Virus record (IMG/VR): IMGVR_UViG_3300012943_000001
Location: 167,743 to 205,462 of that record
DNA from: a virus
Lineage: Duplodnaviria; Heunggongvirae; Uroviricota; Caudoviricetes
Strand: one strand, 5' to 3'
DNA: 37,720 nt
The notes below the pieces were generated by a model. The model was not told the origin of the DNA and searched no databases. It saw only the letters and a list, made by a program, of their open reading frames with translations. The stretch's first letter is position 1; each line of letters opens with the position of its first letter. Both the position numbers and the translations under genes were made by a program. This document shows positions 7,129-30,237 of this stretch, one piece after another.

Positions 7129-7426
7129 TTTTCAAAAGCACGTCTACGCTGCCATAGGTAGGGAAGTCTCTGTTCGGTTAAGTCCGGCCCTGAGTCCTAT
7201 GGTAGAGGAAGTTCGCCGCTTCTTAACACGCCGCAGGCAGACCTAGTAACTGGGAAACCAGCAGAACAGTCGTTATGACCTCATGGAAGAAGCAACCCTA
7301 AAGTTCCTAGAGTGAGTGTTACTCGACAATGGTAAGGTTGGGGCAGTTTGCTATTAACACGCAACCAGACGCAAGTCTGAGACAAATGTAGACCTAATAC
7401 AGAACGGCGGCTATTACTTTTGAAAA
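7129..7426 (+). ncRNA. rnpB: RNase P RNA (reduced specificity domain)
   Basis: P1 TTTTCAAAAG/CTTTTGAAAA; P2 GTCTAC/GTAGAC; P3 CTGCCATAGG/CCTATGGTAG; CR-I GAGGAAGTTCGCC; P4 AGT(T)CGCC/GGCGGCT with bulged U; P5 GCTTCTT/AAGAAGC; L15 GGTA; CR-IV AGACAAATG; CR-V ATACAGAAC..GGCTA. Confidence 0.85.
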
Positions 7427-7806
7427 CTCAACTCTCCCGAGTGTATGCCCCTGTGGCAATTTGCACAGAGGAGAGTTGTTTTATCTAGCTCTTTCTTGAT
7501 ACGTTCGAACGAATGATTTTTCGCCATAGCGATAGCAATCGAATTTTCCTTGACTTCTGGGTCAAGATGGTGAAACTCTAAAGCAGATAGAAATTTATTG
7601 AATCCGCAGCACTGGCAAGCTCCACCTTTATAAGCGACCGCTTTTACTTTCATTTCCCTACGTTTCTTCTGAAGTCGCTCACGTCGATTATTCAGTACGG
7701 ACGCTCCGCAATAGTAAGCTATCGTTCCACGATTAACTCCCGTCTTTTTCTCAATCTCTCTGTAACTTAAACCCTCTGACCTAAGCTTCAATAGTATGTC
7801 TTTCAT
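7414..7806 (-). CDS. HNH endonuclease with N-terminal HTH
   Basis: GLSYREIEKKTGVNRGTIAYY HTH; GGACQCCGF, LEFHHLDP, LLCANCHRGIH; ATG at 7806. Confidence 0.9.
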   Translation of the reverse strand: MKDILLKLRSEGLSYREIEKKTGVNRGTIAYYCGASVLNNRRERLQKKRREMKVKAVAYKGGACQCCGFNKFLSALEFHHLDPEVKENSIAIAMAKNHSFERIKKELDKTTLLCANCHRGIHSGELSFQK

Positions 7807-7833
7807 ACTTTGATTTACACAGGTTGGACTTTT

Positions 7834-8100
7834 ATGGGAACACAACCATACAACCTCGCAGAAAATAAAAGAGTGGCGAACGCGGCAGTTCTTGCGTTCC
7901 TCCAAGCGAATCCTTCATGGGTTTTCGCAGGCTATGTATTAGTCGATACTGATACAGCTAACATGCGAATCTTTGCGGATGGTAAAGAGCGTATGCTTAT
8001 TACGCCCGAGCGTAATGAGTTGATGGACCCGAAGCTTCCATGCTTCCAAGTCAATATGGACAATCTCAGGAAACAGATGGAGCAGAGCGGACACGACTAA
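7834..8100 (+). CDS. Hypothetical protein
   Basis: ORF track 7810..8100; ATG 7834 preferred. Confidence 0.6.
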   Translation: MGTQPYNLAENKRVANAAVLAFLQANPSWVFAGYVLVDTDTANMRIFADGKERMLITPERNELMDPKLPCFQVNMDNLRKQMEQSGHD

Positions 8101-8405
8101 TGATATACTCTAGAAGAAAAACAATCGCTCGAATCATTTACTTGCTGAATAGTCCGACTTTTCTATTCATGTCTCAAGGCTTCGCGTTTCGAGGAAAAAG
8201 ACTTCGAATCCGCTATGTAAATCGCAAGGCGAGCCACACAGAGTTGAATAAGCTTGACACCACGACTCTTCGCCTTCTTCATGACTGCATGATTATAACT
8301 GAGTCCATAGCTCCTAATCTCAAAAGAACTTTAGGCAACAACGTCTCAAAAAGAGGATACGAATGGAACGTCCCATTTACTCCTCGCAACCGCTTTTCAA
8401 AGTGA
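8100..8405 (+). CDS. Hypothetical protein
   Basis: TAATG coupling to the upstream gene. Confidence 0.55.
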   Translation: MIYSRRKTIARIIYLLNSPTFLFMSQGFAFRGKRLRIRYVNRKASHTELNKLDTTTLRLLHDCMIITESIAPNLKRTLGNNVSKRGYEWNVPFTPRNRFSK

Positions 8406-9205
8406 GTAACATTCTTTCAGGTAAATCTATCGAACTCCTCTGTGAATTTCACGGAGGCTCGCATCTTTACGGGCTCAATACGCCTGCCAGCGACATCGAC
8501 GTTCGAGGCGTGTACGCAAATACGGACTACACGTCCATCCTTGGTACGAAACGCTTTGACGAAGAGCGTAGGCAAACGGCGAGCATCCAAGAGGATATCG
8601 TCTACAAAGAGGTGAGTCACTTTATCCGTCTTCTTAAACAGTCGAATACGGAGGCGTTGGAAATTCTTTTTGCGTCTGAGTCTGCGTTCTCTATACTCTC
8701 CGACTCCATGAAGTTGATTCGTTCCTACCACGAGTCTCTTGTCGATTCTGAGCGTCTATACAAATGCCTTTGCGGATATATGCAGGGCGAGTATCGTCTT
8801 GCTATTGGAGAACGTAAAGGCCAGATTGGCGGCAAACGCTACGAGTCTGTACAGAAGTACGGGTTTAGTCCGAAAAACTTTACGCAGCTCTTCCGCCTCG
8901 CCTATGCAGGCCAGATGTTCTTTGAGCAAAATCGCTTCCCAGTTAACATTAAAGAAGAAAAAGACCCTGACATTTGGAACGCTTTGATGAATATCAAAAC
9001 GAAGCCAGAACTCTTCACGAAAGACGAGCTTACGCTTAAATATGCTGAGGCTGAGTTGGCCCTTGAACAGGCTTACGAAAACCGCGTCGTAGAGCGTAAG
9101 TTTGATGAAGACAAAGCGAATGAGCTTCTATTTGATGTCTATATGCCGCACCTCGTCAATGGCTATCAGGAAGCGTTGTCGAAGCGAATTAAGAGTCGCG
9201 AATGA
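8402..9205 (+). CDS. Pol-beta superfamily nucleotidyltransferase (RlaP / RNA-repair-associated type)
   Basis: GGSHLYGLNTPASDIDVRGVY, NTEALEILF, YGFSPKNFTQLFRL; GTG 8402 coupled to the upstream stop. Confidence 0.8.
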   Translation: MSNILSGKSIELLCEFHGGSHLYGLNTPASDIDVRGVYANTDYTSILGTKRFDEERRQTASIQEDIVYKEVSHFIRLLKQSNTEALEILFASESAFSILSDSMKLIRSYHESLVDSERLYKCLCGYMQGEYRLAIGERKGQIGGKRYESVQKYGFSPKNFTQLFRLAYAGQMFFEQNRFPVNIKEEKDPDIWNALMNIKTKPELFTKDELTLKYAEAELALEQAYENRVVERKFDEDKANELLFDVYMPHLVNGYQEALSKRIKSRE

Positions 9206-9474
9206 ATTGGTTCATTACCATTCTCCATAGGGAGGGTGCGGACATCACACGCACCTTCTTTATTGATAAGATTGAGGCTCAAAAGGCGTGGCACAAAATC
9301 ATAGCGGAAAAGAAAGGATATAAGAGCGAAACCTACAAGATTTGGTCAAAGAAGATGGTGACTGAATGGGGAGTAACGCTTATACAGAATCAGGATAGTT
9401 CAAGCGTGTATGCTATCGAACTTTGGGACCGCTCCCTATGGTCAAAAGATGCACCAGAAACAATTTCCGGTTAA
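9202..9474 (+). CDS. Hypothetical protein
   Basis: ATGA-coupled ORF. Confidence 0.6.
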   Translation: MNWFITILHREGADITRTFFIDKIEAQKAWHKIIAEKKGYKSETYKIWSKKMVTEWGVTLIQNQDSSSVYAIELWDRSLWSKDAPETISG

Positions 9475-9658
9475 CAATCCGAACCGTCTGTGGCCGTACC
9501 AAGCTAACCCTTGACTGCCCGCCCAAGAAAATAACAGAGTGGCACAAAGCGAAGGTCCAAACTGAGTGAGTAAGCCGCTAGTAATAAAAGGATTACATTT
9601 TCTTCGAAAAGGTCTTGACTTTCAGAAACCAGCAGTCATTGTCCATCTCGTAAGTTAT

Positions 9659-9674
9659 CGTTCTTTCAAAATTT
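9659..9674 (+). promoter_or_regulatory. boxA-like antitermination motif
   Basis: CGTTCTTTCAAAATTT between promoter TTGACT(9615) and a structured RNA. Confidence 0.55.
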
Positions 9675-9976
9675 TGTTCGTTGCTGGTAGGTAGGATTAA
9701 TAGTGTCCATCCTTTAATAAGTCGCCAGTGGAATGAGTTAAAAGCGTCAGCTACTTCGATTCGGGTAAAAGCGATAGCCCGACGTAAATCCACACGGGAA
9801 GGAAGTAAAGGGAGGCTCATGCTCGGCATGAGAGGTGCCCTCGAACGCAGTATACGCGGTATGATAAAGGGGTGAAGCCCTTCATCCAAGTCATGGGGAG
9901 ATACGCAAAGTCCCTAGAAACAAAGCGGCGTATGACCGAAAGAGCGTTTAGTGTCTAAACAAGCCAGCAGCGAACA
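9675..9976 (+). ncRNA. Unassigned ~300-nt structured RNA
   Basis: 13-bp terminal helix TGTTCGTTGCTGG/CCAGCAGCGAACA; internal hairpins; flanked by promoter and boxA upstream and a new promoter downstream. Confidence 0.65.
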
Positions 9977-10038
9977 GATTTTTTCGAAAAGTTCTTGACG
10001 AACGCAAAAGAGTCTGTATTATAGTTCGTATAGTTAGT

Positions 10039-10054
10039 TGTTCTTTAATAATTT
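10039..10054 (+). promoter_or_regulatory. boxA-like motif
   Basis: TGTTCTTTAATAATTT after promoter TTGACG(9995)-N16-TATTAT, immediately before the tRNA-like cluster. Confidence 0.6.
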
Positions 10055-10055
10055 C

Positions 10056-10168
10056 GGGGAAGTAGCTCAGAGGTGGCGAGACGCAAGTCTTGTAGACTAG
10101 AGTCAAATCTAGGTAGAGCGAGCGATAACTTCGCTAGGTCGGTGGTTCGAATCCATCCTTCCCCACCA
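10056..10168 (+). tRNA. Non-canonical tRNA with expanded D-loop and 5-nt anticodon loop
   Basis: Acceptor GGGGAAG/CTTCCCC-A-CCA, D-stem GCTC/GAGC enclosing two extra hairpins, arm AGCGA-TAACT-TCGCT, T-arm GGTGG-TTCGAAT-CCATC. Confidence 0.8.
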
Positions 10169-10174
10169 ATTTAT

Positions 10175-10246
10175 GCCGCGTCGTCTAAGCACTAGGACGC
10201 CACCTTACCCGGTGGAAATGCAGATTCGTAACCTGCTGCGGCACCA
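10175..10246 (+). tRNA. Degenerate tRNA with 6-nt anticodon loop
   Basis: GCCGCG/TGCGGC-A-CCA, D-stem GTCT/GGAC, arm CCACC-TTACCC-GGTGG, T-loop TTCGTAA. Confidence 0.65.
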
Positions 10247-10249
10247 ATT

Positions 10250-10335
10250 TAGCGGTCGTCTAATATAGGACACTTGAGGCGTAAAAAGCATCAAGGAATG
10301 CAGGTAGCCACGCCCGGTTACTTCGCCCGCTAGCA
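10250..10335 (+). other. Highly degenerate tRNA-like element
   Basis: TAGCGG/CCGCTA, D-arm GTCT-AATATA-GGAC, arm CTTGA...TCAAG; no TTC T-loop; ends GCA. Confidence 0.4.
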
Positions 10336-10389
10336 AATTTTGCAGACGTATTCTGCAAGTCGGGGTAGGTAAGCCTGAGAGTCTATCTG

Positions 10390-10565
10390 GGCTCCCCGTC
10401 TCTATACATCAGTACGAAGTAGACTTCAGCTTCGTAAAGTTGATTGAGGTGAGGCGAAAAACCGAATTTTGTTCTTTGTTAGATTATACGACTCTCTAGG
10501 AAAACGTTAATCCGCTTGGCTCGCAAGGCTAAGAGAACTCTGTTCAATTCGGAGGGGAGCCTCCA
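10390..10565 (+). tRNA. tRNA-Cys(GCA)-like RNA with ~100-nt expansion replacing the D-arm
   Basis: Acceptor GGCTCCC/GGGAGCC-T-CCA; arm TTGGC-TCGCAAG-GCTAA; T-arm CTCTG-TTCAATT-CGGAG; 119 nt between acceptor and anticodon arm. Confidence 0.65.
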
Positions 10566-10804
10566 ATTTTGTGAGCGGTCAGTAGGCCACTGACGCAGCA
10601 AATCGGGTCAAACCGTAGCTCACAGAACAAGCCAGTGTTCGCATATCGACTATAAGCTGATATTGACCCCGCAAAGGCGATATTAAGACAGGGTGAATAA
10701 TAAGTCGCTCCTACGTATACTAAAGAGAAATGCGGCTCCCGCCCGCTATGCGAATCCAATTTCCAATCCAATATATGAAAACTGAAATGTAGCAATGTCG
10801 CGAG

Positions 10805-11032
10805 GTGGTCTTCCACTTCAATAAGTTTAGCATAGTCGATACTACGGTCCCGCCGTGGGTCATTAAAGCAAAGGGTCAAACCTTCTATGTTAAACATGTT
10901 GAATGTTGTGCCGCTTGGTCAACAAAGGAAACACCAGACAACCCTCATACAAAGGGTAGCCTCAAGTTCAAAAACGTAGACCTCCGTATAGAAGATGAGG
11001 TCGCATACATCACGCAAGCCACCCCACCATGA
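10805..11032 (+). CDS. Hypothetical phage protein (possible upstream extension to ATG 10775 through TAG)
   Basis: ORF track; FHFNK...STKETPDNPHTKGSLKFK. Confidence 0.7.
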   Translation: MVFHFNKFSIVDTTVPPWVIKAKGQTFYVKHVECCAAWSTKETPDNPHTKGSLKFKNVDLRIEDEVAYITQATPP

Positions 11033-11250
11033 TTTTCTTTTTGACAGTTATCTATGTCCTAGCTAGTCTAGGAATTGCTTTTTTGCTTGTAGACCTGCAT
11101 TTTTTTCTCGCCGACCCTAGCTCGGCTAAGGTGGTATGGACACTTATCCTGTTCTTTCTTTTTTGGCCGCTTATCTTTGTGTGGTTTGGGCTTATTGTCA
11201 TCAAAGATTTGCTGGCAGAGTTCTTTAACAATCTCAAAAGTAAATCTTGA
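11029..11250 (+). CDS. Small membrane protein
   Basis: Two hydrophobic stretches; ATGA coupling. Confidence 0.65.
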   Translation: MIFFLTVIYVLASLGIAFLLVDLHFFLADPSSAKVVWTLILFFLFWPLIFVWFGLIVIKDLLAEFFNNLKSKS

Positions 11251-11283
11251 CTTTCCATTCGTGGCGTATCAATCTCGCCTCAT

Positions 11284-11359
11284 GCTTGGGTAGCTCAATG
11301 GCAGAGCAGGCGTCTCTAAAACGCGTCGGTTGTGGGTTCGACTCCCACCCCTTGCACCA
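11284..11359 (+). tRNA. Amber suppressor tRNA (anticodon CTA)
   Basis: Acceptor GCTTGGG/CCCTTGC (two U-U), D-arm GCTC/GAGC, arm GGCGT-CTCTAAA-ACGCG, T-loop TTCGACT, A73, CCA; own promoter TTGACT(11247)-N17-CAATCT. Confidence 0.88.
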
Positions 11360-11450
11360 CTTAGGTTCGACATTTTCTTACCGTTTTGGCCGTAACCTTA
11401 ATACGGGGCGATAAACGGAACAGGTTGGAGCGTTCCAGTAAATACGCTCT

Positions 11451-11465
11451 TGTTCTTTAACATTT
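11451..11465 (+). promoter_or_regulatory. boxA-like motif preceded by a boxB-like hairpin
   Basis: TGTTCTTTAACATTT (E. coli rrn boxA is TGCTCTTTAACA), directly after hairpin GAGCGT...ACGCTC. Confidence 0.65.
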
Positions 11466-11590
11466 GGGCGGACTTAGCGGTTCGCCTTCCCTACTCTGGT
11501 ATCAGCAATGGTGTCGGGCTCACAGAGAGTAATCACAGCCTTCCCGAAGGTCGTAACGCTCGGGTGGACTATGAAGTAGGGAGAATTTAT

Positions 11591-11723
11591 TGGAGAGTAT
11601 GGGGTAACGTCATCCCCACCCGCGTGGGAGCGGGAGAAGGTAATACTACTAGCGTTATGGGTCTAATTAACCTACCCGCAGGAATAACTTTAGCTGTAGG
11701 TTTAAGTCCTACCTCTCTGACCA
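11591..11723 (+). tRNA. tRNA-Pro(GGG)-like RNA with 6-nt anticodon loop and 61-nt variable region
   Basis: Acceptor TGGAGAG/CTCTCTG-A-CCA; D-arm TGGGG/CCCCA; arm CCCGC-GTGGGA-GCGGG; T-arm GTAGG-TTTAAGT-CCTAC. Confidence 0.65.
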
Positions 11724-11859
11724 TTTTAGGCTCCGCGAAATGCATCTAGTGGAGCCTGTCTGTTGTAGTATGCCGGGGTAATCTGTATAGTTCCCGCTTA
11801 GTCGCACGTCATTGCAGAAGACCATTGCGAGCCGCAGACGAATTTCTTTTATTACGTAC

Positions 11860-11928
11860 AGGTATGTAGTCTAATGGTAAAACACGAGGCTATTTCCGAG
11901 TATCTTGGTTCGAATCCAAGCGTACCAG
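11860..11928 (+). pseudogene. tRNA-like element lacking a proper anticodon arm
   Basis: GGTATG/CGTACC, D-loop AATGGTAA, intact T-arm CTTGG-TTCGAAT-CCAAG; no 5-bp anticodon stem. Confidence 0.55.
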
Positions 11929-11939
11929 TGCGTAAGTTT

Positions 11940-12030
11940 ATAAAGAGGGCTCAGACCAACTGAGTTGTAAGCTCGAATCAGTAAAACGGACATGAGCAGG
12001 TTCGTTCTGGACGCAAGTCCGCCTCTTTAT
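11940..12030 (+). ncRNA. Small structured RNA candidate
   Basis: Closing helix ATAAAGAGG/CCTCTTTAT; hairpins CTCAG/CTGAG and GGAC-GCAA-GTCC. Confidence 0.45.
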
Positions 12031-12032
12031 TA

Positions 12033-12517
12033 AAATCCCTTTTGACTTAGTGGAGGAACATACCTCTATGAAGATGGGCGAAATACTGCCTTCCTAAACC
12101 TCCGATTGTTGTTGTAGTGGCAGCGAAGATGCAGATTCGTATCGACTGTCGTTGGTCTTGAGGTCGATGGGTTATACTCGCTCATAGAACGACTCCATAG
12201 AAAGAGCGGCCTCGCGAACCGCAGCCTCTATGCAGTTCAAGAGGAGATTGGCTATAACTTAAGCCGCGATGAGTGGCCCACTTTAACTTTCCGTTCTTTT
12301 CATTTTCCCGGTCTTAAATACCTTAGCATTCGTCGTGCTATTTGTCGAGTAGACCATCCGTCCCGCGTTAGCTCAGGGTAACGCAACTATTCTTTCTGTC
12401 TGCAATCCTACGTAACGGTTCAGGTTGTGGAGTTAGGACAGGGGATTTGATGGTGAAAGAGGAGCCCACCCTACAGGGCCATTCAGTGAGATGACCAACT
12501 CAACACGTAGGGCGGGA
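12033..12517 (+). ncRNA. Long structured non-coding region (one or more RNAs)
   Basis: No credible + strand ORF; many helices (GGAGG/CCTCC, ATCGAC/GTCGAT, TAGCA/TGCTA, GCGTTA/TAACGC, AAATCCCTT/AGGGGATTT); internal boxA-like motif at 12292. Confidence 0.45.
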
Positions 12518-12518
12518 A

Positions 12519-12896
12519 TTATTTTTCTAAGAAGTGTATTTCTCTATGGCAATTAGAGCACACGAGGATACATTTCTTTATCTCTTTGAGACCTTTATTC
12601 AAGCTATCAAAGAATGGAGTAGGGTCTTTTTCTTCAGGGTTTACATGATGAAAGTCTAAAGAGGCAACGCATTTATCATACCCACACTTCACGCACTTTC
12701 CTCCAGCCGCTTTAACGAGTTCTCTTTTGATACTGTTACGGCGAGCTTGTCTAGTCTCGTTCTTTTTAAGTCTATATTTCTCTTCCCTGTGGTATAGAAC
12801 AGTGCTCATAGATACGTTGAGAGCGTCGCTTATTTGTCTATTTGTTTTACCGTCGTTTATAAGTGTGGTAATCTTTTCTTTTATAGTTGACTCCAT
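12519..12896 (-). CDS. HNH endonuclease with N-terminal HTH
   Basis: GKTNRQISDALNVSMSTVLYH HTH; GGKCVKCGY, LDFHHVNP, LVCSNCHREIH. Confidence 0.9.
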   Translation of the reverse strand: MESTIKEKITTLINDGKTNRQISDALNVSMSTVLYHREEKYRLKKNETRQARRNSIKRELVKAAGGKCVKCGYDKCVASLDFHHVNPEEKDPTPFFDSLNKGLKEIKKCILVCSNCHREIHFLEK

Positions 12897-13059
12897 GTCT
12901 TAGTTACACACTAAGGGAGCCATCGGGAAGTTCCTTTCGATTTTCCTTAGCAGGTCAGGGATTAAGGGCTAATTAGTTTGCTCCGTTGCGTTTGCAACCC
13001 AGCTTACTTTTTAGCCCTTTTTTCTTGACAAAACGGAAGACGCGTGCATCGTAAGAGAC

Positions 13060-13239
13060 ATGAAACGAACCACCTACATGTTTGCCCATCCCGAATCCGA
13101 AATCGGGCGTCTCTACCGCCACGCGGAACAAGGAACTGATGGCGACGGACACCCCGATTGGAAGCTGATAGCTATTAACCAAATCGGTCTTTACGTCCTC
13201 AAACGCAAGAACTGGCTAGAAAAACTTTTCCGTCTATAA
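13060..13239 (+). CDS. Hypothetical protein, 59 aa (not in ORF track)
   Basis: MKRTTYMFAHPESEIGRLY...WLEKLFRL; ATG 35 nt from TTGACA(13025). Confidence 0.65.
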   Translation: MKRTTYMFAHPESEIGRLYRHAEQGTDGDGHPDWKLIAINQIGLYVLKRKNWLEKLFRL

Positions 13240-13240
13240 C

Positions 13241-13543
13241 ATGAGTTTCGACAAATACGCCACTCACGCCTCTTCCGTAGCTAAGGCCGCATCCGCATCG
13301 CCCAAACCAATCACAACCCAGCTCCACGCCACCACCCTTACCATTGGCGAGAACTTTGCAGTTCGTATTGGCGACGGCTACACTGTCATCTCCGATGTTG
13401 TTAAAGTGGACGGAAAGCCCGCTACAGGGCCTAACTCGTACCAAATCAAAACCGCAAAGCTTGACGAGCTGATTCGAACAATAGTTTGTGCGGAGACCGC
13501 GTTCAAAGCGGCCAAGACTCTTGAAGAAGGATTCCCTAAGTGA
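13241..13543 (+). CDS. Hypothetical protein
   Basis: Co-oriented ORF. Confidence 0.65.
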   Translation: MSFDKYATHASSVAKAASASPKPITTQLHATTLTIGENFAVRIGDGYTVISDVVKVDGKPATGPNSYQIKTAKLDELIRTIVCAETAFKAAKTLEEGFPK

Positions 13544-13800
13544 TTCCGTTCGGTCGTTGCACCCTAGTTGAATCTGGCAAAAGAATTCTTCAATGCCGTT
13601 GCGATGGTTCGACCTTAGTTCTCACTCTGCCCGCTCCCTTCCCCGGCTCGTTCTGTCAATACTGCGACCTGACTAAGTATAAAAATGAAAAATCTATACA
13701 GACGCTTTCTACTCTTCCTCTGGGTTCTCAAGACGGACAAGTTGGAACTAGTTCATATAGTGATAGCTCTCAGCCTTCGTCAGGCGAACGGACGCAGTAA
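13540..13800 (+). CDS. Hypothetical protein with Cys pairs
   Basis: GTGA coupling; CRC and CQYC; 3' part overlaps the next ORF. Confidence 0.4.
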   Translation: MIPFGRCTLVESGKRILQCRCDGSTLVLTLPAPFPGSFCQYCDLTKYKNEKSIQTLSTLPLGSQDGQVGTSSYSDSSQPSSGERTQ

Positions 13801-13879
13801 TATCAAACCGTATAACGATGCCAAGCAGCTCGTAGAAACAATTCCATACGTAAACTCATACGCCAAACTGCACGATTAA
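13685..13879 (+). CDS. Hypothetical protein
   Basis: A-rich leader; ends 1 nt before the next ATG. Confidence 0.5.
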   Translation: MKNLYRRFLLFLWVLKTDKLELVHIVIALSLRQANGRSNIKPYNDAKQLVETIPYVNSYAKLHD

Positions 13880-13880
13880 A

Positions 13881-14309
13881 ATGAAAACGGTAAAAATTCC
13901 TTTCACTTACGCTCGCGTTCCCAATGGTGAACCTCTGAAGTTTGGAGACCTGTACGATTGGAATGGAAGTTGGCTTCCCGTTACGATTGGTAACGAGACA
14001 GACCATTTGGCGGTCGAACCTTACGTCTACATTCGTTTGAAGCAAGACCTTGTGTCTTGTATCATGCGGGGTCTTATTCGGGCATTTGTTTGGTGCCTCA
14101 GCTTTCGCTTCGTGGAGATTCCGCTCAGGACTCTCATGATGACGTGCATTCTTATGACGAGCACTATGTTTTTCATTGGCCTAATAAGCCTAGTCAATGG
14201 AGACTCTGTAGAGCGGGTTCAGCAAATGCTATCAGTAACTCCTCGGACCATCGCCTTGTTTGTTCTCCTGCTTATCCCGGGCTATATCTCTCAAAGAAAT
14301 CTTGTATGA
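13881..14309 (+). CDS. Hypothetical membrane protein
   Basis: C-terminal hydrophobic helices. Confidence 0.6.
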   Translation: MKTVKIPFTYARVPNGEPLKFGDLYDWNGSWLPVTIGNETDHLAVEPYVYIRLKQDLVSCIMRGLIRAFVWCLSFRFVEIPLRTLMMTCILMTSTMFFIGLISLVNGDSVERVQQMLSVTPRTIALFVLLLIPGYISQRNLV

Positions 14310-14926: not shown

Positions 14927-14927
14927 T

Positions 14928-15598: not shown

Positions 15599-15599
15599 T

Positions 15600-22186: not shown

Positions 22187-22392
22187 CTCCTCAACGCACT
22201 CTTCAAGCAGAAATCTTTTTCGCCAAAGCTAAGTTTGTACAAATCAAGTATAAACTTGAAAAGGATTTTGCAGAAAAATTAGATACGTTCTACGAGTCAG
22301 CCTCCTTCTTTGCTTATATCGGAAACCTAGAGCGAGCCCGCGAAGAACTCGTGCTTGCAAACATTCAGGTACTACCTCACCTCACCTCATGA
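22183..22392 (+). CDS. Hypothetical protein
   Basis: ATGA coupling. Confidence 0.55.
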   Translation: MTPQRTLQAEIFFAKAKFVQIKYKLEKDFAEKLDTFYESASFFAYIGNLERAREELVLANIQVLPHLTS

Positions 22393-23450: not shown

Positions 23451-23481
23451 CTTAATCGAAACGAAAGCGTATCCTTTAGCC

Positions 23482-23577
23482 ATGACACCAGACCTCTATC
23501 TTAAAATTATGATGGGATTCACCCTCTTAATTGCGGTCGGGACGTTTCTTCACCTCCATTTCAAAACAAGAAAATAA
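23482..23577 (+). CDS. 31-aa single-TM peptide (not in ORF track)
   Basis: MTPDLYLKIMMGFTLLIAVGTFLHLHFKTRK; ATG 35 nt from TTGACT(23447)-N17-TATCCT; TAATG-coupled to the next gene. Confidence 0.6.
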   Translation: MTPDLYLKIMMGFTLLIAVGTFLHLHFKTRK

Positions 23578-23999
23578 TGTCCGATTCAGATAAACCTATC
23601 GAGCCTCTTAAGCCTGAGAACGCACCAATCCAAATCGACGAACAGTCTGAGGCTGCAATCGTTGCAAACATTGAGAAAGTGTTTAGCAACCATGACCCTC
23701 GTACCTCTATCGTTAAATCAATGGTGGATTTCAAAGCCATCATGGTAGAGAAGGGTATGACGCCTGAGTTCGTCAACAGCTTCATTGGTAAAATGCGTTT
23801 TGACGTAGACCCAGAGCTTTACGGCACTGGCATCTATCTTAAGATGATGGAGCTTTGTGCGGATAATGCATTCAAGCTCTACGAAATCTTCCTCCAAGAC
23901 TTCGACGCCAATACCTTCGCAGACATGGCTAAAAACCTTTCTGTCCGCGTCAAACTGCCACGTATCCAACTTCCACCACCTCCCGAAGATGTCGAGTAA
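23577..23999 (+). CDS. Hypothetical acidic protein
   Basis: Co-oriented ORF. Confidence 0.65.
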   Translation: MSDSDKPIEPLKPENAPIQIDEQSEAAIVANIEKVFSNHDPRTSIVKSMVDFKAIMVEKGMTPEFVNSFIGKMRFDVDPELYGTGIYLKMMELCADNAFKLYEIFLQDFDANTFADMAKNLSVRVKLPRIQLPPPPEDVE

Positions 24000-24228
24000 A
24001 GAGGAAATTCTAGACGAGAAGGCTGAAAAGCTAACTCAAGAGAGTATCAAGTCTCTTCGCGAGGCCCATGCAAATGAGTTCAAGCAGGGACTTGGATTCA
24101 AACTTCCTATCGGTGCCGTCCTTCATGAGGAGATAAAAAGCCGCTTCTATAAACGAATGGCGGACTTGGGCTGGAAAGTCGATATGGTAACCAGTGACGG
24201 TCAATTCAGGGGATACTACGCAGAATGA
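23989..24228 (+). CDS. Hypothetical protein
   Basis: ATG 23989 preferred over the track start. Confidence 0.6.
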   Translation: MSSKEEILDEKAEKLTQESIKSLREAHANEFKQGLGFKLPIGAVLHEEIKSRFYKRMADLGWKVDMVTSDGQFRGYYAE

Positions 24229-24491
24229 AAATAGGACCGCTACAGTTTCTTTTGGGTGGAATATGCGTTCTTGCGTTTGGACTTATCATGCTCTCTATTG
24301 GGCAGGCTTCGGCCAAGGCTCGTGCTCCCGTCCGCGAGATTTATATTCCTGAGCAGTACAAGGCCGTTGCTGCCAAGTTGTACGCTGAGGTGTATGAGTC
24401 CGCAGCTAGGAATTATGCTGGGCCTATGGGCCATGTAGATAAACCCGCCGACGCTGCCCAACAGGCGGTCGAACGCATGTACGGACAATGA
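24225..24491 (+). CDS. Membrane-anchored protein, paralog 1 of 3
   Basis: N-terminal TM plus IPE..AAKLYAEVY..AVERMYG. Confidence 0.7.
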   Translation: MKIGPLQFLLGGICVLAFGLIMLSIGQASAKARAPVREIYIPEQYKAVAAKLYAEVYESAARNYAGPMGHVDKPADAAQQAVERMYGQ

Positions 24492-24829
24492 TTATGTTCT
24501 TCGAAGAGCTATTCAAAACAGTACGCATCGCAATCATTCTCACGTTTGCTTTCGGAATCTTCTATTACGTTGTCGTGCGTAAATCTAACGACCCCGAAGT
24601 CATATACAGAATACCAGAAGGCAGGCAAGAGGCCGCGACGCGTATGTATAATGAGGTGTACGCCAAAACTTTTAACGGGGCAAACCAAACGTCCGCCTCT
24701 GATTACGCCAGAGAGGCTGTCCTGAAAATTTATGGAGAGCCTATTATCGTTCCAAAGGGTCAGCCAGAAGCAGACCCATTAGAGTTTATCAAGCCAGAAA
24801 AGAAGCCGCCTAGCCGTATACAAAAATAA
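24488..24829 (+). CDS. Membrane-anchored protein, paralog 2 of 3
   Basis: N-terminal TM plus IPE..AATRMYNEVY..AVLKIYG. Confidence 0.7.
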   Translation: MIMFFEELFKTVRIAIILTFAFGIFYYVVVRKSNDPEVIYRIPEGRQEAATRMYNEVYAKTFNGANQTSASDYAREAVLKIYGEPIIVPKGQPEADPLEFIKPEKKPPSRIQK

Positions 24830-24830
24830 C

Positions 24831-25169
24831 ATGGACACCATCTCATATCGCAGGGGGATTACTCCGCTCAAAATTATCACGTGGAGCTTTACGGGATTCA
24901 TCGTATTCATTTTTGTGATTACGAGCGTGAAGTGTACGTTCTCTACTTCAGATATTCCTACTGGACCCCGTGAAGTCATTAAGTATTCTATACCGGAAGA
25001 GAAGCGTGTCGAAGCCGCAAAGCTTTATACGGAAATTTATAGGGCAGCTATGGACAATGGAAGCACGGCTGGATGGGCGACCGAATCCGCAGAGAAGGCC
25101 GTTGAGAGAGTTTATGGCATGAAAGAAGTCTCACGTGAGATTAGACAACCAGAGAAAGCCCGCAAATAA
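24831..25169 (+). CDS. Membrane-anchored protein, paralog 3 of 3
   Basis: N-terminal TM plus IPE..AAKLYTEIY..AVERVYG. Confidence 0.7.
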   Translation: MDTISYRRGITPLKIITWSFTGFIVFIFVITSVKCTFSTSDIPTGPREVIKYSIPEEKRVEAAKLYTEIYRAAMDNGSTAGWATESAEKAVERVYGMKEVSREIRQPEKARK

Positions 25170-25171
25170 AC

Positions 25172-25369
25172 ATGATTCCTAAAAAATTCTATCGTGGTGA
25201 CAATCAACCAATCGCCGAAAACGTTGGAGAATTAAAAGCTATCCTCAACGAACTGCCTGACGACCTCCGCGTAGACGGTGGATGGGGAAACCCTGTCCAA
25301 GTCGTAGTCTATAATCATGGCAAGCCTGATATGCGTTTGTCGTTCGAAGAGGCAGAGGAGCAAGATTAA
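25172..25369 (+). CDS. Hypothetical protein
   Basis: Co-oriented ORF. Confidence 0.6.
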   Translation: MIPKKFYRGDNQPIAENVGELKAILNELPDDLRVDGGWGNPVQVVVYNHGKPDMRLSFEEAEEQD

Positions 25370-25370
25370 A

Positions 25371-25688
25371 GTGAGTTTTCTTCGCGTATCTATCTTTGGG
25401 TTCCCGCCTGCAAGCTGGGCTCGCAAGCGTAAAGAGATTTGCGACCGTCGCAGGCTTGTAAATCTACGTCGTGTCACAATAGCGAAGGTAGACGTAGACA
25501 TCAGGCAGGCCGCGAAACGTCAAAACTACACCCATATCTCCATACCCGAGATTTTCTCAGAGGAAATCATTGAGAAGCTAAAGAAGCAGGGTTACATTAT
25601 AGACGTGTGGAAGGATGACTATGGATATAGTGACAGTCATAGATACGTGAAATTGTCTGTGCAATGGCATGAATGGCCCGCAGTATGA
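25371..25688 (+). CDS. Hypothetical protein
   Basis: GTG 25371 just after the upstream stop. Confidence 0.55.
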   Translation: MSFLRVSIFGFPPASWARKRKEICDRRRLVNLRRVTIAKVDVDIRQAAKRQNYTHISIPEIFSEEIIEKLKKQGYIIDVWKDDYGYSDSHRYVKLSVQWHEWPAV

Positions 25689-26035
25689 GCCTTCTATCCT
25701 ATCTCAAATCGAAAATTTTCCCAGAGACTAAGCCTATCAGGTACGTCTCTAGGCTTCCTGACGTTTCGGAGCTTCCACCCATCCATGAGAACAACATCCT
25801 GAGACGCGAGCAAGAACGCCAAGAGAGATTGAATGTAGTCTTTGACCAGACTATGGAGAAGATTACCGAAAGGGTAAGGGCGGCAATCTATAACCATGTC
25901 GTCGTATTCGTCCCTAATGTAATTGAAGATAGAGTTCGAAATGCAGTGGAGCGTAAAGGATATACCGTAACAGTCATGAATCACACCAGCCCCGAAAGGA
26001 CGCTTTGGAAGATAACATGGAAACACAAACTATAA
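25685..26035 (+). CDS. Hypothetical protein
   Basis: ATGA coupling at 25685. Confidence 0.6.
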   Translation: MSLLSYLKSKIFPETKPIRYVSRLPDVSELPPIHENNILRREQERQERLNVVFDQTMEKITERVRAAIYNHVVVFVPNVIEDRVRNAVERKGYTVTVMNHTSPERTLWKITWKHKL

Positions 26036-26316
26036 ACCTTGACCCCATTGTTGGGCCAGTGATTACCTCTAAAGAGCTTTTCGAAGTGTCTAGAAAGGCA
26101 GTCGAAGAGAGTATGGAGTATCAGGAATTTGTACAGACTCTAAATAAGAACATACTTGCTACAGCTCAAAGTGGCAGATTCTTTTTGAATGTAGACGTAC
26201 CCGTACACTGGCATTTAGTCCTTTTTATAAACTACCGAAAGAACGGTATAGACGTTCATCTAGATTCTATCGAAGACGAGCACTATAAAGCTCGCATTGC
26301 GTGGGCAAATGGATAA
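26017..26316 (+). CDS. Hypothetical protein
   Basis: ATG 26017 preferred. Confidence 0.6.
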   Translation: METQTINLDPIVGPVITSKELFEVSRKAVEESMEYQEFVQTLNKNILATAQSGRFFLNVDVPVHWHLVLFINYRKNGIDVHLDSIEDEHYKARIAWANG

Positions 26317-26359
26317 TTTACTTTGGGTAATTTAGACTACAAATACAAAATTCTACAAT

Positions 26360-26743
26360 ATGGGTCCGCTACGTAAACAATTCATCACCATAAGTCTCGT
26401 TGCTTTAGGTCTCGCCTTTAGCTTCTGGGGCTTTATCATTGCCGGACTTATCCTCATGTACAATAAGTACATATGGATTTCGCTGCTATCACTTATGCTA
26501 GGTGTTATATGCAGGGTAATTACATTGCGTCTAGCACGTCGATTGGTGGGTCTCATTCCTTATTTGCATACGGAAGACCTTTTAAGGCAAGTTAGCGTCC
26601 TCAGCCCCAATACCAATACAGTGACAGATAGTAATGGAGAGATAGTGGGTATAGTAGAAGAGAATAAGGAAGACGTAATATCAACGACTTACAAAACTAG
26701 TGAGGAAGAAGAGGGGAAGAAGGGGTATAAATTGGGCGAATAG
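26360..26743 (+). CDS. Membrane protein with acidic C-terminal tail
   Basis: Two TM helices; ends in TAG. Confidence 0.6.
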   Translation: MGPLRKQFITISLVALGLAFSFWGFIIAGLILMYNKYIWISLLSLMLGVICRVITLRLARRLVGLIPYLHTEDLLRQVSVLSPNTNTVTDSNGEIVGIVEENKEDVISTTYKTSEEEEGKKGYKLGE

Positions 26744-26992
26744 GCGGTGGTCCGACCTCTCTTTCTCTCCCAAAGCGTCCCCTTTCGCCCCATTTCAAAC
26801 CCACTTTCAAAATTCTGTCAAGACTTAAATTTTTACATAAGTATTTGGCACGTTAGCAGCTTACATCAGAAATCCCACAAAGTCAAGTGAGGAAATCTGG
26901 CATACGCGGACACAAATGAGCTTGACTTCTTAGACACATTCAGAACTATGGGCAACTTACTCGCTTGCATCAGCGGGCGGGTCACACAAAAC

Positions 26993-27394
26993 ATGAAATA
27001 CCTAAAAATGTTAGCGTTTGCGTTGGCTGCGTTCTTCGCGGTCAACTTTTCTCAGGCAGCAATCGTAGACTACACTTATCGTAGTGGGTCTTTGCCGGGT
27101 GGCGAGGGTTGGTATACCACGGAAACTACGTGGAACTGGTTCTATGCGACCTCGTACTCATTCGAATACTATCATGACGACGCGACTGGTATCTCCTACC
27201 ATTCGTATCAAGTCTCTGATGGCACCACGACCCTCTACATGGACTCACAGTGGACTTCGACCACGTTCTCCATTACTTCGTACAATCATTTCTCGTTTTA
27301 TAACGCGGAATTTATGGCAGAACTGTGGCCGGTAGCGGACAGCTTTTACGCTTTGCACCCTGTCCCCGCTCCGCCCCCACCCCCAGAGTGGTAA
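26993..27394 (+). CDS. Secreted Tyr/Ser/Thr-rich protein
   Basis: Signal peptide MKYLKMLAFALAAFFAVNFSQA; C-terminus HPVPAPPPPEW. Confidence 0.75.
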   Translation: MKYLKMLAFALAAFFAVNFSQAAIVDYTYRSGSLPGGEGWYTTETTWNWFYATSYSFEYYHDDATGISYHSYQVSDGTTTLYMDSQWTSTTFSITSYNHFSFYNAEFMAELWPVADSFYALHPVPAPPPPPEW

Positions 27395-27424
27395 TCGAGG
27401 CCATCACTTCACCTCAGACCCTCG

Positions 27425-27449
27425 GCCCACTGTAAAAGGTGGGCTTTTT
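27425..27449 (+). terminator. Intrinsic terminator
   Basis: GCCCACT/GGTGGGC followed by TTTTT. Confidence 0.75.
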
Positions 27450-27687
27450 AGTGCCCAAATTTGAGCGGGTTTTGGCGTAATAAACCCATATCTGAGCGTG
27501 TAAAGTCTTAATAAACATGATTTTATAGCAAAAAACGCCTCTTAAACCCGAATCAGGAACGCAAAATTTACTGTGGGCGGGCATTCGGCCTTATTCGTAT
27601 AATTTTCGACGCATTTTATGTCAAGAAATCGCTCTGCCCCGCGTTTTACATCTTGACTTTGAGAGAAGATTGCGATTAACTGTCCTC

Positions 27688-27753
27688 ATGCTCCTGATTC
27701 TTCTTGTTTTAGGCGGGATTGCCTATTGGCAGTTCTTAGAGCATCACTATTAA
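27688..27753 (+). CDS. 21-aa hydrophobic peptide (not in ORF track)
   Basis: MLLILLVLGGIAYWQFLEHHY; ATG 35 nt from TTGACT(27653). Confidence 0.5.
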   Translation: MLLILLVLGGIAYWQFLEHHY

Positions 27754-27772
27754 CTTTTGACCCCCTCTTTGT

Positions 27773-28297
27773 ATGGAAAATAAATGGATAGCAGACAGAG
27801 GCTACGGTACGGGCATGTCGCTCGCCTTCCAAGGTGACGAGGAATTTGTCCGCCGTAGCATGAACTTTGCTGCGAACTTTCTTTTGTCAAGTAAGGCTCA
27901 GGCCCGCCAACAAACACCAAACTTCGCCCTCGTCAATACAACGATGGCAGAGCTTGAAGACGCATTTCGAGCGGAGGGTTACGTAATAAAGATGCGTGAA
28001 CTCTATGCAGCTCGCCCGCGTGTGCGTCTGGAGGCTGAGGATTTTCCTGACGATTTCGACGAGCAGGTTCGTAAATATACCCATGAACTCCTATCCGGGA
28101 ATGAAAATGCTGTGGACCCGACACAGTACATGATGGATGAGGAGACAGATGAAATGCGGGAAATTTCCACACAATACGGTGAGGAGCACGCTAAACGCGA
28201 GATGGCTAAGTTGGAGTTCGACGCCTACATGCGTTTGGTTTCGCCCGCATCAGTTGTAACGCACGCTGTTGTTGAAAGTTTCGAAAAAGGTTCTTGA
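27773..28297 (+). CDS. Hypothetical protein
   Basis: Co-oriented ORF. Confidence 0.65.
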   Translation: MENKWIADRGYGTGMSLAFQGDEEFVRRSMNFAANFLLSSKAQARQQTPNFALVNTTMAELEDAFRAEGYVIKMRELYAARPRVRLEAEDFPDDFDEQVRKYTHELLSGNENAVDPTQYMMDEETDEMREISTQYGEEHAKREMAKLEFDAYMRLVSPASVVTHAVVESFEKGS

Positions 28298-28371
28298 CTT
28301 TCCTAACAGATATGCGATAATCGCCTTCGTAATCGGAAAACATTCCAAATATAACTCAACCCACTAATACA

Positions 28372-28464
28372 ATGCCCATCAAAAAGTCCTCCGCCAAGAA
28401 AAAGACCGTCGCCAAGAAACCAGCCGTCAAAAAGGCCAAGGTCGTCGCCGTCAAGTCTGAATAA
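28372..28464 (+). CDS. 30-aa Lys/Ala-rich histone-H1-like peptide (not in ORF track)
   Basis: MPIKKSSAKKKTVAKKPAVKKAKVVAVKSE; C-ending codon bias; promoter TTGACT(28294)...GATAAT upstream. Confidence 0.65.
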   Translation: MPIKKSSAKKKTVAKKPAVKKAKVVAVKSE

Positions 28465-28469
28465 GTTTC

Positions 28470-28930
28470 GAGTCAGGAGCCCTAACACCTAGACAGTTAA
28501 AAGAGTAGATGGTGGTAAGCTCTTAGACGAAAACGCACATCCTTGACTTCCTGTTGGAAGCTGGGTGGTTAATGTGCCCGCTAATCGTTCCTGACTCAGG
28601 TTAATAACCCTTGGATTAGCAAGAAATTTCGTAATAACAAAGCTCCATGTGGCTGAACCTCTGGGCCTCTCAGATGCCCGTCCCTACCCGGTGAGATTGA
28701 GAAGTAAGGGGCTCTTGGAGTTAAGGAACAAAGCCAAGTATTTAACAGGGTGTCCTTAATAAGACATAGACCTGAATGACAAAAGTGAATTCTGTATAAT
28801 CGAGCAATAGGCACAGCTACACGCCCATAGGAAACGCTTAAGTCTTAATAAGACTAAGGTGCCCGGTTCCTTTGAGGGGCGACGAATCCTGCCAGCAATG
28901 GTTCAGGTACAGAGCGTGATTCGTGAATTC
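28470..28930 (+). ncRNA. Unassigned long structured RNA candidate
   Basis: No + strand ORF; helices GAGTCAGGA/TCCTGACTC, ACCTGAAT/GTTCAGGT, GGCAC/GTGCC; repeat CTTAATAAGAC twice; ends at a terminator. Confidence 0.5.
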
Positions 28931-28937
28931 TTTTATG

Positions 28938-28971
28938 GAAGCCATCTTTAACCGGGTGGCTTTCTTTTTTT
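28938..28971 (+). terminator. Intrinsic terminator
   Basis: GAAGCCATCT/GGGTGGCTTT followed by a T run. Confidence 0.75.
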
Positions 28972-29007
28972 ATTGACTTTTTGCAAACGAGTGAACTCTT
29001 TCGTAAT

Positions 29008-30237
29008 ATGAACATCATAGACACAATCGAAGCTGGCGTAGAGGTATGTGAGAAACTTCAAGAAGCGGGTCACCAAGCAGTATTTGCAGGTGGTTGTGTA
29101 CGCGATTTTCTATTGGGTGTAGAACCCACGGACATCGACATTGCTACGAGTGCGACGCCAGACCAAGTTGAAGCCCTCTTTCCCAAGACTGTAGCTGTGG
29201 GCAAAAGTTTTGGTGTCATCCGCGTAATACATGACGAGGAGGAGTTCGAAGTGGCTACCTTCCGCAAAGATTCCAAAGAGGGTGACGGTCGCAGACCTGA
29301 CTCTGTAGAATTTTCCTCAATGGAGGAAGATGCCAAGCGTCGTGACCTTACGATTAACGCAATCTTTTTCGACCCAATCAGTGACAAGTTCCATGACTTT
29401 GTAAATGGTCAGCGGGACTTGCATCACAAAATTATCTGCATGGTGGGTGACCCTGCCGAACGTATCAAAGAAGATAAGCTGAGAATCCTTCGTGTGATTA
29501 GGTTTGCTGCCCGGTACAAGGGTGCAGTCATCGAATCAGAGACGGGTCAAGCCGTACTTGAACATGCGAAAGAAGTTCTCGAAGTCTCCCATGAACGCAT
29601 TGGAGATGAATTGACGAAAATTCTCACGCATAAGAGTGCGGCTGTGGGCCTAGTCCACCTAAAGAACTACGGTTTGGATTTTCTGGTGCAGCCAAGTACG
29701 CTAATGGGCCGCAATCATATCCGTAACGCTATCGAAGTGTTTACGTTCGCATCGAAGCATACGGCTGGTAATAAATCGCTGGCGTGGGCCGCAGCTCTCC
29801 ACGAGTACGGCTACGACGCAATCGTACAACACCTCAAGTTCCTTCGCTTCGACACGAAGACGATTGACCGTGTGGTAGGCATCACGGATTTGCTCAAAGG
29901 CTTCCCCGGATTCAAAACGCTCCCTGTATCTAGCAGAACGAAAATGCTAGCGACGGAGTATTTTGATGACACATTCCGTCTTTTCTCCTGCCTGCCTAAT
30001 ACGAAAGAAAGCCTCTGTGATTTTATCCTTCACTTTCAGGCTTCAACGCCTCTTTCGCAGGTAAAACCAGAGCGTCTTGTAAATGGTAATGACCTGATTG
30101 CTATGGGAATGAAGCCCGGTAAGAAATTCAAGGAAATCCTTGAAGTCATTGATACCCAGCAGCGTGAGGGTATTGTTACCTCGCGTGACGAAGCTATGGA
30201 AATCGCCAAAGCAATGGTGGCGAAAATTTCTGCATAA
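29008..30237 (+). CDS. cca: CCA-adding tRNA nucleotidyltransferase (class II)
   Basis: GGCVRDFLLG..DIDIAT, EVATFR, DGRRP flexible loop, RRDLTINA, EDKLRILRVIRFAAR, VNGNDL..GMKPG; ATG 35 nt from TTGACT(28973). Confidence 0.88.
   Translation: MNIIDTIEAGVEVCEKLQEAGHQAVFAGGCVRDFLLGVEPTDIDIATSATPDQVEALFPKTVAVGKSFGVIRVIHDEEEFEVATFRKDSKEGDGRRPDSVEFSSMEEDAKRRDLTINAIFFDPISDKFHDFVNGQRDLHHKIICMVGDPAERIKEDKLRILRVIRFAARYKGAVIESETGQAVLEHAKEVLEVSHERIGDELTKILTHKSAAVGLVHLKNYGLDFLVQPSTLMGRNHIRNAIEVFTFASKHTAGNKSLAWAAALHEYGYDAIVQHLKFLRFDTKTIDRVVGITDLLKGFPGFKTLPVSSRTKMLATEYFDDTFRLFSCLPNTKESLCDFILHFQASTPLSQVKPERLVNGNDLIAMGMKPGKKFKEILEVIDTQQREGIVTSRDEAMEIAKAMVAKISA

Follow-up and report, generated by a model that had tools for sequence, protein, structure and literature searches.

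Genomic setting

The window analysed here is a stretch of 37,720 nucleotides (nt) that forms the last 37.7 kb (positions 167,743–205,462) of a complete 205,462-bp phage genome from IMG/VR (record IMGVR_UViG_3300012943_000001). The genome has direct terminal repeats and encodes a large terminase (TerL), a portal and a lambda-J-like tail protein. Between positions 7129 and 30237 of the window lie an RNase P-like RNA, a nucleotidyltransferase of the RlaP family and a CCA-adding enzyme, which an initial annotation had read as a self-contained toolkit for tRNA maturation and repair. This interval consists of the tail of an RNA-gene region and 20 kb past that region. Its three principal features are:

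7129–7426, + strand: phage-type miniaturised RNase P-like RNA, assigned from covariation, helix coordinates, layout against the RF00010 consensus and a descriptor
8363–9205, + strand: RlaP-family Pol-beta nucleotidyltransferase; PF10127 (E 2.6e-12), phrog_388 (E 3.6e-23), GGS...DID motif
29008–30237, + strand: class II tRNA nucleotidyltransferase of the CCA-adding type, no HD domain; PF01743, PF12627, PF13735; NF009814

The phage genome carries 48 tRNA genes (ARAGORN), all on the + strand between 156.4 and 179.1 kb, with nearly full coverage of the amino acids (His is missing). CCA is encoded at the 3′ end of 47 of the 48. The 5′ flanks of these genes show a T-A-T consensus at −3 to −1 (U-A-U in RNA), with T at −1 in 39/48, and 15 of the inter-tRNA spacers are only 3–10 nt long.

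Structure and conservation of the RNase P-like RNA

The RNA at 7129–7426 has the whole layout of an RNase P catalytic domain, comprising P1–P5, P15 with a GGU loop, a GNRA-capped P18 and the P4 pseudoknot. The elements are as follows (window coordinates; the two strands of a helix are separated by a slash; CR, conserved region):

7129–7138/7417–7426: P1
7142–7147/7388–7393: P2
from 7149/7205: P3
7205–7212: CR-I
7210–7218/7405–7412: P4 pseudoknot helix, with U7212 bulged, joining CR-I and CR-V
7219–7222/7289–7292: P5
7223–7288: reduced specificity domain
7294–7303: J5/15
7336–7347: GGU loop and P15 3′ strand
7366–7379: P18-like GCAA hairpin
7379–7388: CR-IV
7399–7413: CR-V and P4 3′ strand

That P4 with its bulged U can form between GAGGAAGUUCGCCG (7205–7218) and ACAGAACGGCGGCUA (7399–7413) was seen by eye. 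In the window RNA, ∼60 nt between the P5 strands are all that is left of the specificity domain. They form one small arm, which still has a P7-like helix and, in GUUAAUACCAC, a block similar to the bacterial GUAAACCCCAC; a GGGUGAAA-like block was seen only in two of the phage RNAs (L049 and L053). One extra hairpin lies between P15′ and P18.

The proposed structure, 53 pairs in 11 helices, was assessed on an alignment of 20 distinct IMG/VR phage RNAs. Bases fit the proposed pairing in 90.6% of the paired cells, compared with 67.5% in shuffled controls, none of which (0/500) reached the observed value, and pairing dropped to 34–46% when the partner was slid by one to three columns. Changes on both sides were found in 44 of the 53 pairs. 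Pairing was near complete in P2 (99.2%), P3 (99.1%), P4 (99.4%), P5 (100%), P15 (100%) and P18 (96%), with P2 alone occurring in 13 different sequences, and a P15 pair covaries from U-A to C-G in the window RNA and in L056. For P4, compensatory changes (GC-to-AU, CG-to-GC, CG-to-UA and CG-to-AU) were observed at five of its eight positions, and all eight pairs are also formed in 38 of the 46 family members found in metagenomes, with many sequence variants. The bulged U, AGGAAG, ACAGAA and the GGU loop are invariant in the 20 sequences. Covariation across these RNAs thus shows that the RNA which the initial annotation had placed at 7129–7426 is real and conserved.

The minimum-free-energy fold of the RNA alone was no better than that of shuffles (z −0.56), a result that is uninformative either way for a pseudoknotted RNA. 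Two apparent features of the sequence were discarded. The palindromic TTTTCAAAAG flanks, considered as the mark of a mobile element, proved to be the covarying P1 stem, and a AGACGCAAGUCU hairpin common to the RNA and to a tRNA-like RNA at 10056 was dropped, as chance alone should give a 12-mer repeat in 38 kb. One family member (L026:11149–11522, − strand) carries an insert of ∼120 nt at the site of the specificity domain, with a ∼48-codon open reading frame (ORF) containing two CxxC pairs and resembling a zinc ribbon, a protein-coding insert within an RNA gene.

Resemblance to bacterial RNase P RNA

For comparison, seven real bacterial rnpB genes were used, with the RF00010 consensus structure laid on one of them. 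The order and spacing of elements in the phage RNA are those of the RF00010 consensus on a true bacterial rnpB. In the 5′ half, both have P1, P2, an unpaired G, P3 closed by the first G of GAGGAA, P4 and, directly after it, P5. As in bacterial type A RNase P RNA, AGGAA(A)GU leads into P4, and P4 itself pairs CR-I (GAGGAAAGU...) with CR-V (ACAGAA...GGCUUA in bacteria), a feature that the phage RNA shares. The 3′ half of the phage RNA reads CAA, P15, the GGU internal loop, P15′, the GNRA-looped P18, AGAUAAAU, P2′ and, a few nt on, ACAGAA, P4′, A and P1′.

Within this common layout, individual elements differ in detail. P15, which follows CAA, is UCC/GGA in the phage RNA and ggcc/ggcc in bacteria, and its internal loop is UAAAG/AAGGUU rather than AAAUAG/CGGGUA. 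The GGU of the phage RNA sits where bacterial RNase P reads the CCA end of the tRNA; GGUUGG is invariant and lies directly 5′ of the P15 3′ strand, as does the bacterial GGGUAgg, and it is also kept in three phages whose tRNA genes do not encode CCA. CR-IV, directly before the P2 3′ strand, is GAGAUAAAU in the phage RNA and AGAUGAAU in bacteria, with AGAURAAU common to both. Each P4 strand is 1 nt shorter in the phage RNA (AAG...CUA, compared with the bacterial AAAG...CUUA), amounting to the matched loss of one A-U pair. The phage RNAs are 210–370 nt long and bacterial type A RNAs about 310–400 nt; P8–P14 with CR-II and CR-III of the bacterial RNA are replaced in most phage members by one small variable arm, and the window RNA does not have the P7–P14 specificity domain with CR-II and CR-III.

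A single descriptor of the shared constraints matched at the right place in 3/7 rnpB genes and in 17 phage RNAs. It gave one match in the 205-kb phage genome (window 7142–7413) and none in 757 kb of reversed or complemented decoys.

Distribution and tRNA arrays

A 15-mer scan of IMG/VR followed by blastn returned six contigs with two collinear conserved blocks. A second family pattern (GGTTGGRGCAGT, 18–48 nt, GAGAYAAAT) matched 25 stretches in IMG/VR, with a GAGGAAGT-like motif 106–237 nt upstream in all but one, and the two motif scans together gave 20 distinct full RNAs among the 25 matches; L043 was rejected as a chance match. In metagenomes the second pattern found 46 further full members with 41 distinct cores. 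No family member was found with it in 185,579 prokaryote genomes, where all ten matches were rejected as chance: they were without CR-I and without the hairpins, had an ordinary coding appearance and had no RNase P RNA nearby. Searches of GenBank phages by blastn, with the window RNA region and two family members as queries, gave no RNA homologue. Among the collections searched, the RNA family was found only in viral and metagenome DNA.

The TerL of the window phage has no match in five large RNA-bearing records, and the RNA therefore spans distant phages, since no detectable terminase is shared with these five large carriers. In the related-locus searches, TerL as query returned one 6-kb contig only, and no close relatives were found through the upstream ORF, the CCA enzyme or RlaP.

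In all 24 IMG/VR loci the RNA lies within a tRNA array, with 278 of 278 tRNAs on its strand. The nearest tRNA is often 4–30 nt away, so that cleavage by RNase P at the following tRNA would at the same time generate the RNA's own 3′ end. Several copies of the RNA have their own TTGACA/TATAGT-type promoter, and in several other phages the RNA follows a TAGTTCTTTGA start region.

Three of the arrays, in L016, L020 and L048, are unlike all others in being without encoded CCA (0/16, 0/8 and 2/21 tRNA genes, respectively). Their RNAs have a J5/15 variant, AAUCCAAAC, in common, and the L016 genome encodes a CCA enzyme, which in these three relatives may be a maturation enzyme.

No universal protein partner is conserved beside the RNA; HNH endonucleases, fn3 proteins and a YhaM-like HD protein recur. 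In the window, two HNH genes stand beside RNA genes:

7414–7905, − strand: HNH homing endonuclease gene (PF01844; phrog_2255, E 1.2e-26), outside the proposed toolkit
12519–12896, − strand: second HNH homing-endonuclease gene

At its 3′ end, the first runs 13 nt into the RNA, over the P1 3′ strand. Seven loci have HNH ORFs near the RNA, and the gene here occupies the place held in other phages by the next tRNA. The YhaM-like HD protein, of the 3′–5′ exoribonuclease type, is encoded in the window phage's own genome at 144899–145585 (L008:4899–5585), as well as at L054:409–996 and L026:10276–10869. It has 41% identity to a gene that lies 0.2–2.6 kb downstream of the RNA in other phages, is present in 12/25 records (five strong matches) and shows linkage to the RNA more frequently than cca or rlaP do. 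It is a candidate for the enzyme that trims 3′ trailers.

RNA-repair proteins

The two nucleotidyltransferases of the initial annotation are both confirmed as family members. RlaP scores 47.4 bits against PF10127 (cut-off 23) over profile positions 11–248 of 249 and has the catalytic motif; its ORF runs from 8363 to 9205, with 8402 as a possible GTG start. The RlaP family owes its name to a gene neighbourhood with RNA ligases. In this genome RlaP, at 176.1 kb, is not adjacent to the ligases at 146.8 and 151.6 kb. It is predicted to add 1–2 nucleotides to damaged RNA 3′ ends before ligation, as has been described for the family, in which this activity is needed for tRNA function after excessive damage (bioRxiv 10.64898/2025.12.29.696909). 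The CCA enzyme matches PF01743 (E 2.3e-37, 128.6 bits), PF12627 and PF13735, and the motifs GGxVRD..DID, RRD and EDxxR are found in its translation. The ORF is open from a TTG at 28981. Its best NCBIfam match is full-length to NF009814 (CCA tRNA nucleotidyltransferase) at 246.5 bits, under the 290-bit cut-off, with the pcnB subfamily at 198 bits.

The initial annotation had suggested that the rest of the genome be searched for RNA ligases, and this was positive for two types, which stand with further RNA-related proteins (genome coordinates):

82.5 kb: Ro60/TROVE
144.9 kb: YhaM-like HD protein, upstream of the tRNA cluster
146.8 kb: Rnl1-like ligase (PF09511, E 2e-16)
148.8–150.2 kb: metallophosphoesterase (Metallophos E 3e-4, weak) and Pnkp-type kinase (AAA_33 E 1.3e-21, match to bacterial Pnkp kinase domain), as separate genes
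151.6 kb: Rnl5/DRB0094 ligase, above its cut-off

A T4-type heal-and-seal set of 5′ kinase, 3′ phosphoesterase and Rnl1-type ligase is thus encoded together at 146.8–152.6 kb, just before the tRNA cluster. RtcB, Thg1 and Pth were not found in the phage genome.

On the protein side, the genome adds one more example of a repertoire known from jumbo phages since 2021, when tRNAs, ligases, kinases, phosphoesterases, RlaP, CCA-adding enzymes and Ro/TROVE were interpreted as answers to host attack on tRNA and RNase P was unmentioned (Iyer et al. 2021, PMC7824862). For huge phages, CCA-adding enzymes had been reported in 2020 (PMC7162821). As in that repertoire and in the Pnkp/Rnl1 repair of T4, tRNAs, ATP-dependent RNA ligases, kinase, phosphoesterase, RlaP, CCA enzyme and Ro60 occur in one large genome. 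The arrangement is different here: kinase and phosphoesterase are encoded by one gene each, and RlaP, instead of adjoining the ligases, is 24 kb away from them. The proteins thus confirm known jumbo-phage genomics in a new genome and serve mainly as context for the RNA.

Linkage of the RNA to these enzymes is loose. About 40 genes separate RlaP from cca, and the larger ORFs scanned among them comprise an M50-type peptidase, a weak phosphoribosyltransferase-like match and others with no Pfam match; an RNA function was not seen in any of those scanned. Among the 24 RNA-bearing records, all of which are fragments, four have cca and two have rlaP. Of the three most complete, G013 (79%) and G021 (74%) carry the two genes, and G017 (89%) is without either. 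Where present in other RNA-bearing phages, cca and rlaP are 16–93 kb from the RNA. With these genes far from the RNA or absent, the picture comes close to the independent distribution that the initial annotation had named as refuting its proposal.

tRNAs and tRNA-like RNAs of the window

ARAGORN detects six tRNAs in the window (543, 1110, 1508, 5205, 10490 and 11284). tRNAs are thus present, as annotated initially, and only two of the six lie inside the interval 7129–30237. The aberrant tRNA-like RNAs of the initial annotation are also present, at 10056, 10174, 11630 and 11860. The small RNAs within the interval are:

10056–10168, + strand: tRNA-like RNA with intact acceptor stem, T-arm and ACCA end, a 41-nt D-loop insert and a 5-nt anticodon loop (Rfam tRNA 46.3 bits)
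10174–10245, + strand: near-canonical tRNA-shaped RNA with a CCA end (ARAGORN at relaxed threshold only)
10490–10565, + strand: atypical tRNA-Cys(GCA) (ARAGORN only; no Rfam tRNA match)
11284–11359, + strand: well-formed tRNA with a CUA anticodon, an amber suppressor (ARAGORN; Rfam tRNA 51.6 bits)
11630–11723: tRNA-like RNA (ARAGORN at relaxed threshold only)
11860–11928, + strand: tRNA-like RNA with canonical D-arm and T-arm and a degenerate anticodon arm (Rfam tRNA 37 bits)

The tRNA-like RNAs of the window are not conserved in related loci. The tRNA with the CUA anticodon is present although the long ORFs of the genome read through under the standard code.

Discussion

RNase P is regarded as a universal cellular enzyme, and phages, with T4 as the classic case, are known to rely on the host copy for tRNA maturation. 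The new element in the present genome is an RNase P-like RNA. No report of a phage-encoded RNase P RNA was found in the literature, although most subscription journals lay outside the coverage and this absence is not proof; a 2024 review of RNase P leaves such RNAs unmentioned.

Our observations lead us to favour, with moderate confidence, the interpretation that a working RNase P ribozyme is encoded by large tRNA-rich phages themselves. It would be a naturally minimised RNA of bacterial type, specific to phages and ∼210–370 nt long, that is transcribed in tRNA arrays and processes phage pre-tRNAs, probably with a host protein. In the most likely arrangement, the RNA would fold around the P4 pseudoknot, borrow the host RnpA and cut the 5′ leaders of the 48 tightly packed phage pre-tRNAs, with their U-A-U leader consensus at −3 to −1. 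The invariant GGU loop would read the tRNA-encoded CCA ends, and each cut would also free the upstream tRNA with a 3–10-nt trailer. RlaP, for its part, could act together with enzymes encoded 24–30 kb upstream (the ligases of Rnl1 and Rnl5 type, the kinase and the phosphoesterase), restoring nucleotides lost from broken tRNAs ahead of resealing, and the CCA enzyme could rebuild damaged or over-trimmed 3′ ends. We consider it somewhat better than an even chance that the interval as a whole is no single system but the downstream part of a genome-wide set for making, processing and repairing phage tRNAs, built of separately inherited modules that include the RNase P-like RNA.

A number of observations weigh against a working RNase P ribozyme. 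No significant RNase P match was obtained with Rfam for the window at the gathering score, for 6.5 kb at E≤10 or for the 351-nt region alone; the best match, to RNaseP_arch (7.6 bits, E 4.8), covers ACAGAACGGCGGCUA only, and neither L053 and L042 (E up to 10) nor six other loci (gathering score) gave any. The label ‘ribozyme’ used in the initial annotation therefore rests on structure and motifs, since no Rfam family reaches significance. A profile hidden Markov model of the family (nhmmer) found nothing in the seven bacterial rnpB loci or in reversed controls, and because it misses bacterial rnpB, homology rests on short motifs and topology. The descriptor, written after both sets had been seen, illustrates a shared design and is no blind test. 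The specificity domain, with which the T-loop of the tRNA is read, is mostly gone, no promoter was recognised directly upstream of the window RNA, and no rnpA (PF00825) was found in the phage genome or in the 24 related records, so the use of host RnpA is assumed. The only viral precedent found, the RNase P-like RNA of camelpox virus, was inactive in vitro (PMC3001073).

That orthopoxvirus RNA is virus-encoded and resembles bacterial or archaeal RNase P RNA, as the phage RNA does; however, it belongs to a eukaryotic virus, has no link to tRNA genes and does not cleave pre-tRNA in vitro (PMC3001073), whereas the phage RNA lies in tRNA arrays and covaries across dozens of sequences.

Catalytic domains kept with a strongly reduced specificity domain are found in the type T RNase P RNAs of Pyrobaculum and in small type A RNAs of Mollicutes. 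Those are the sole RNase P RNAs of their cells, whereas the phage RNA is an additional copy carried by a virus, and its design is bacterial, not archaeal. The phage RNA is classed as working like bacterial RNase P RNA and as very probably derived from it, outside the Rfam family as it is defined. Descent from an RNase P RNA is considered highly likely; that the RNA is an active ribozyme appears probable, with distinctly less assurance, and both catalysis and the use of host RnpA are inferences.

It is quite unlikely, and the least probable of the alternatives, that the RNA only mimics RNase P and leaves tRNA uncut, acting instead as a sponge for host RnpA or pre-tRNAs that shuts down host tRNA maturation, or as a scaffold or regulator. 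Such a mimic would fit the loss of most of the specificity domain, the missing Rfam match, the lack of a phage rnpA and the inactivity of the camelpox RNA (PMC3001073). However, all elements of the catalytic core are kept, with the bulged U, AGGAAG, ACAGAA and the GGU loop unchanged in 20 sequences, and a sponge needs no intact P4 geometry upheld by compensatory changes; the constant place in the phage's own tRNA arrays also fits the processing of those arrays better than inhibition. Only slightly less doubtful is the proposal of the initial annotation that RNA, RlaP, CCA enzyme, tRNAs and tRNA-like RNAs are the parts of a single coordinated, RNA-centred counter-defence system directed at host anticodon nucleases, with the aberrant RNAs as decoys. 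All of the parts do occur in one genome together with ligases, kinase, phosphoesterase and Ro60, RlaP is 1 kb from the RNA and within the RNA-gene region, and cca and rlaP are present together in two of the three RNA-bearing relatives that are most complete. Both the T4 case and the analysis of jumbo phages further tie such enzymes to attack on tRNA (PMC7824862), and a repair role for attacked tRNAs, as initially put forward, agrees with that analysis and with RlaP biochemistry (bioRxiv 10.64898/2025.12.29.696909). Against a single system stand the absence of conserved linkage (16–93 kb in other phages), the 89% complete G017 genome, which has the RNA and neither enzyme gene, the larger genes scanned between RlaP and cca, in which no RNA function is seen, and the tRNA-like RNAs, which are not conserved in related loci. 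Anti-defence and decoy roles would be drawn by analogy with T4. We know of no role for RNase P in the repair of cleaved tRNAs, which also counts against such a system.

Two further parts of the initial proposal do not hold. The set is not self-contained, as RnpA is found neither in the genome nor in the 24 related records and RtcB, Thg1 and Pth are missing too. Nor does the phage replace both ends of the maturation pathway: CCA is already encoded in 47/48 tRNA genes, which makes the CCA enzyme a repair enzyme here and not an end-making one, and removal of 3′ trailers needs other nucleases.

The purpose of the set could also be supply and not defence, which we regard as a realistic possibility that falls short of even odds. 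After shut-off and degradation of host RNA, the phage would need its own tRNAs, processing and end repair for late genes, and the repair enzymes would handle ordinary wear or the effects of its own nucleases. This is supported by the 48 tRNAs for nearly all amino acids except His, by the many RNase P cuts that dense arrays need and by the RNA family itself, which always accompanies large tRNA arrays and is found in phages with no detectable relationship between their terminases. The tRNA genes without CCA in L016, L020 and L048, together with the CCA enzyme of L016, also point to a plain need for maturation. On the other hand, RlaP prefers damaged RNA substrates (bioRxiv 10.64898/2025.12.29.696909), and heal-and-seal enzymes (kinase, phosphoesterase and Rnl1) are the classic answer to anticodon nucleases. 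Supply is compatible with the genome-wide set of separately inherited modules favoured above, which leaves its purpose open.

If a working ribozyme is encoded, it would be the first RNase P RNA of a virus with catalytic competence; types A and B would be joined by a new structural class, and 5′ processing would join the translation functions taken over by large phages. It would offer RNA biochemists a natural minimal ribozyme of bacterial type, with dozens of covarying sequences for structural work, and would mean that viral metagenomes contain a conserved ribozyme family which standard RNA annotation overlooks.

Other observations in the window

TTGAC-type promoters followed by a recurring GTTCTTTNA stand ahead of small RNA genes at 9612–9668, 9995–10048, 11220–11228 and 11452–11460; the number of GTTCTTTNA motifs in the window is weakly above chance (6, with 2.6 expected). 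A 30-codon lysine-rich ORF at 28373–28463 is followed by ∼500 nt without a plausible gene (28464–28960), and a terminator-like hairpin and a promoter lie just before cca, so an RNA that is not annotated may lie at 28464–28960. A protein with a PEP-CTERM sorting signal adjoins a bacterial sugar transferase (2392–3159 and 3196–3819), which hints at a Gram-negative host with an exosortase system.

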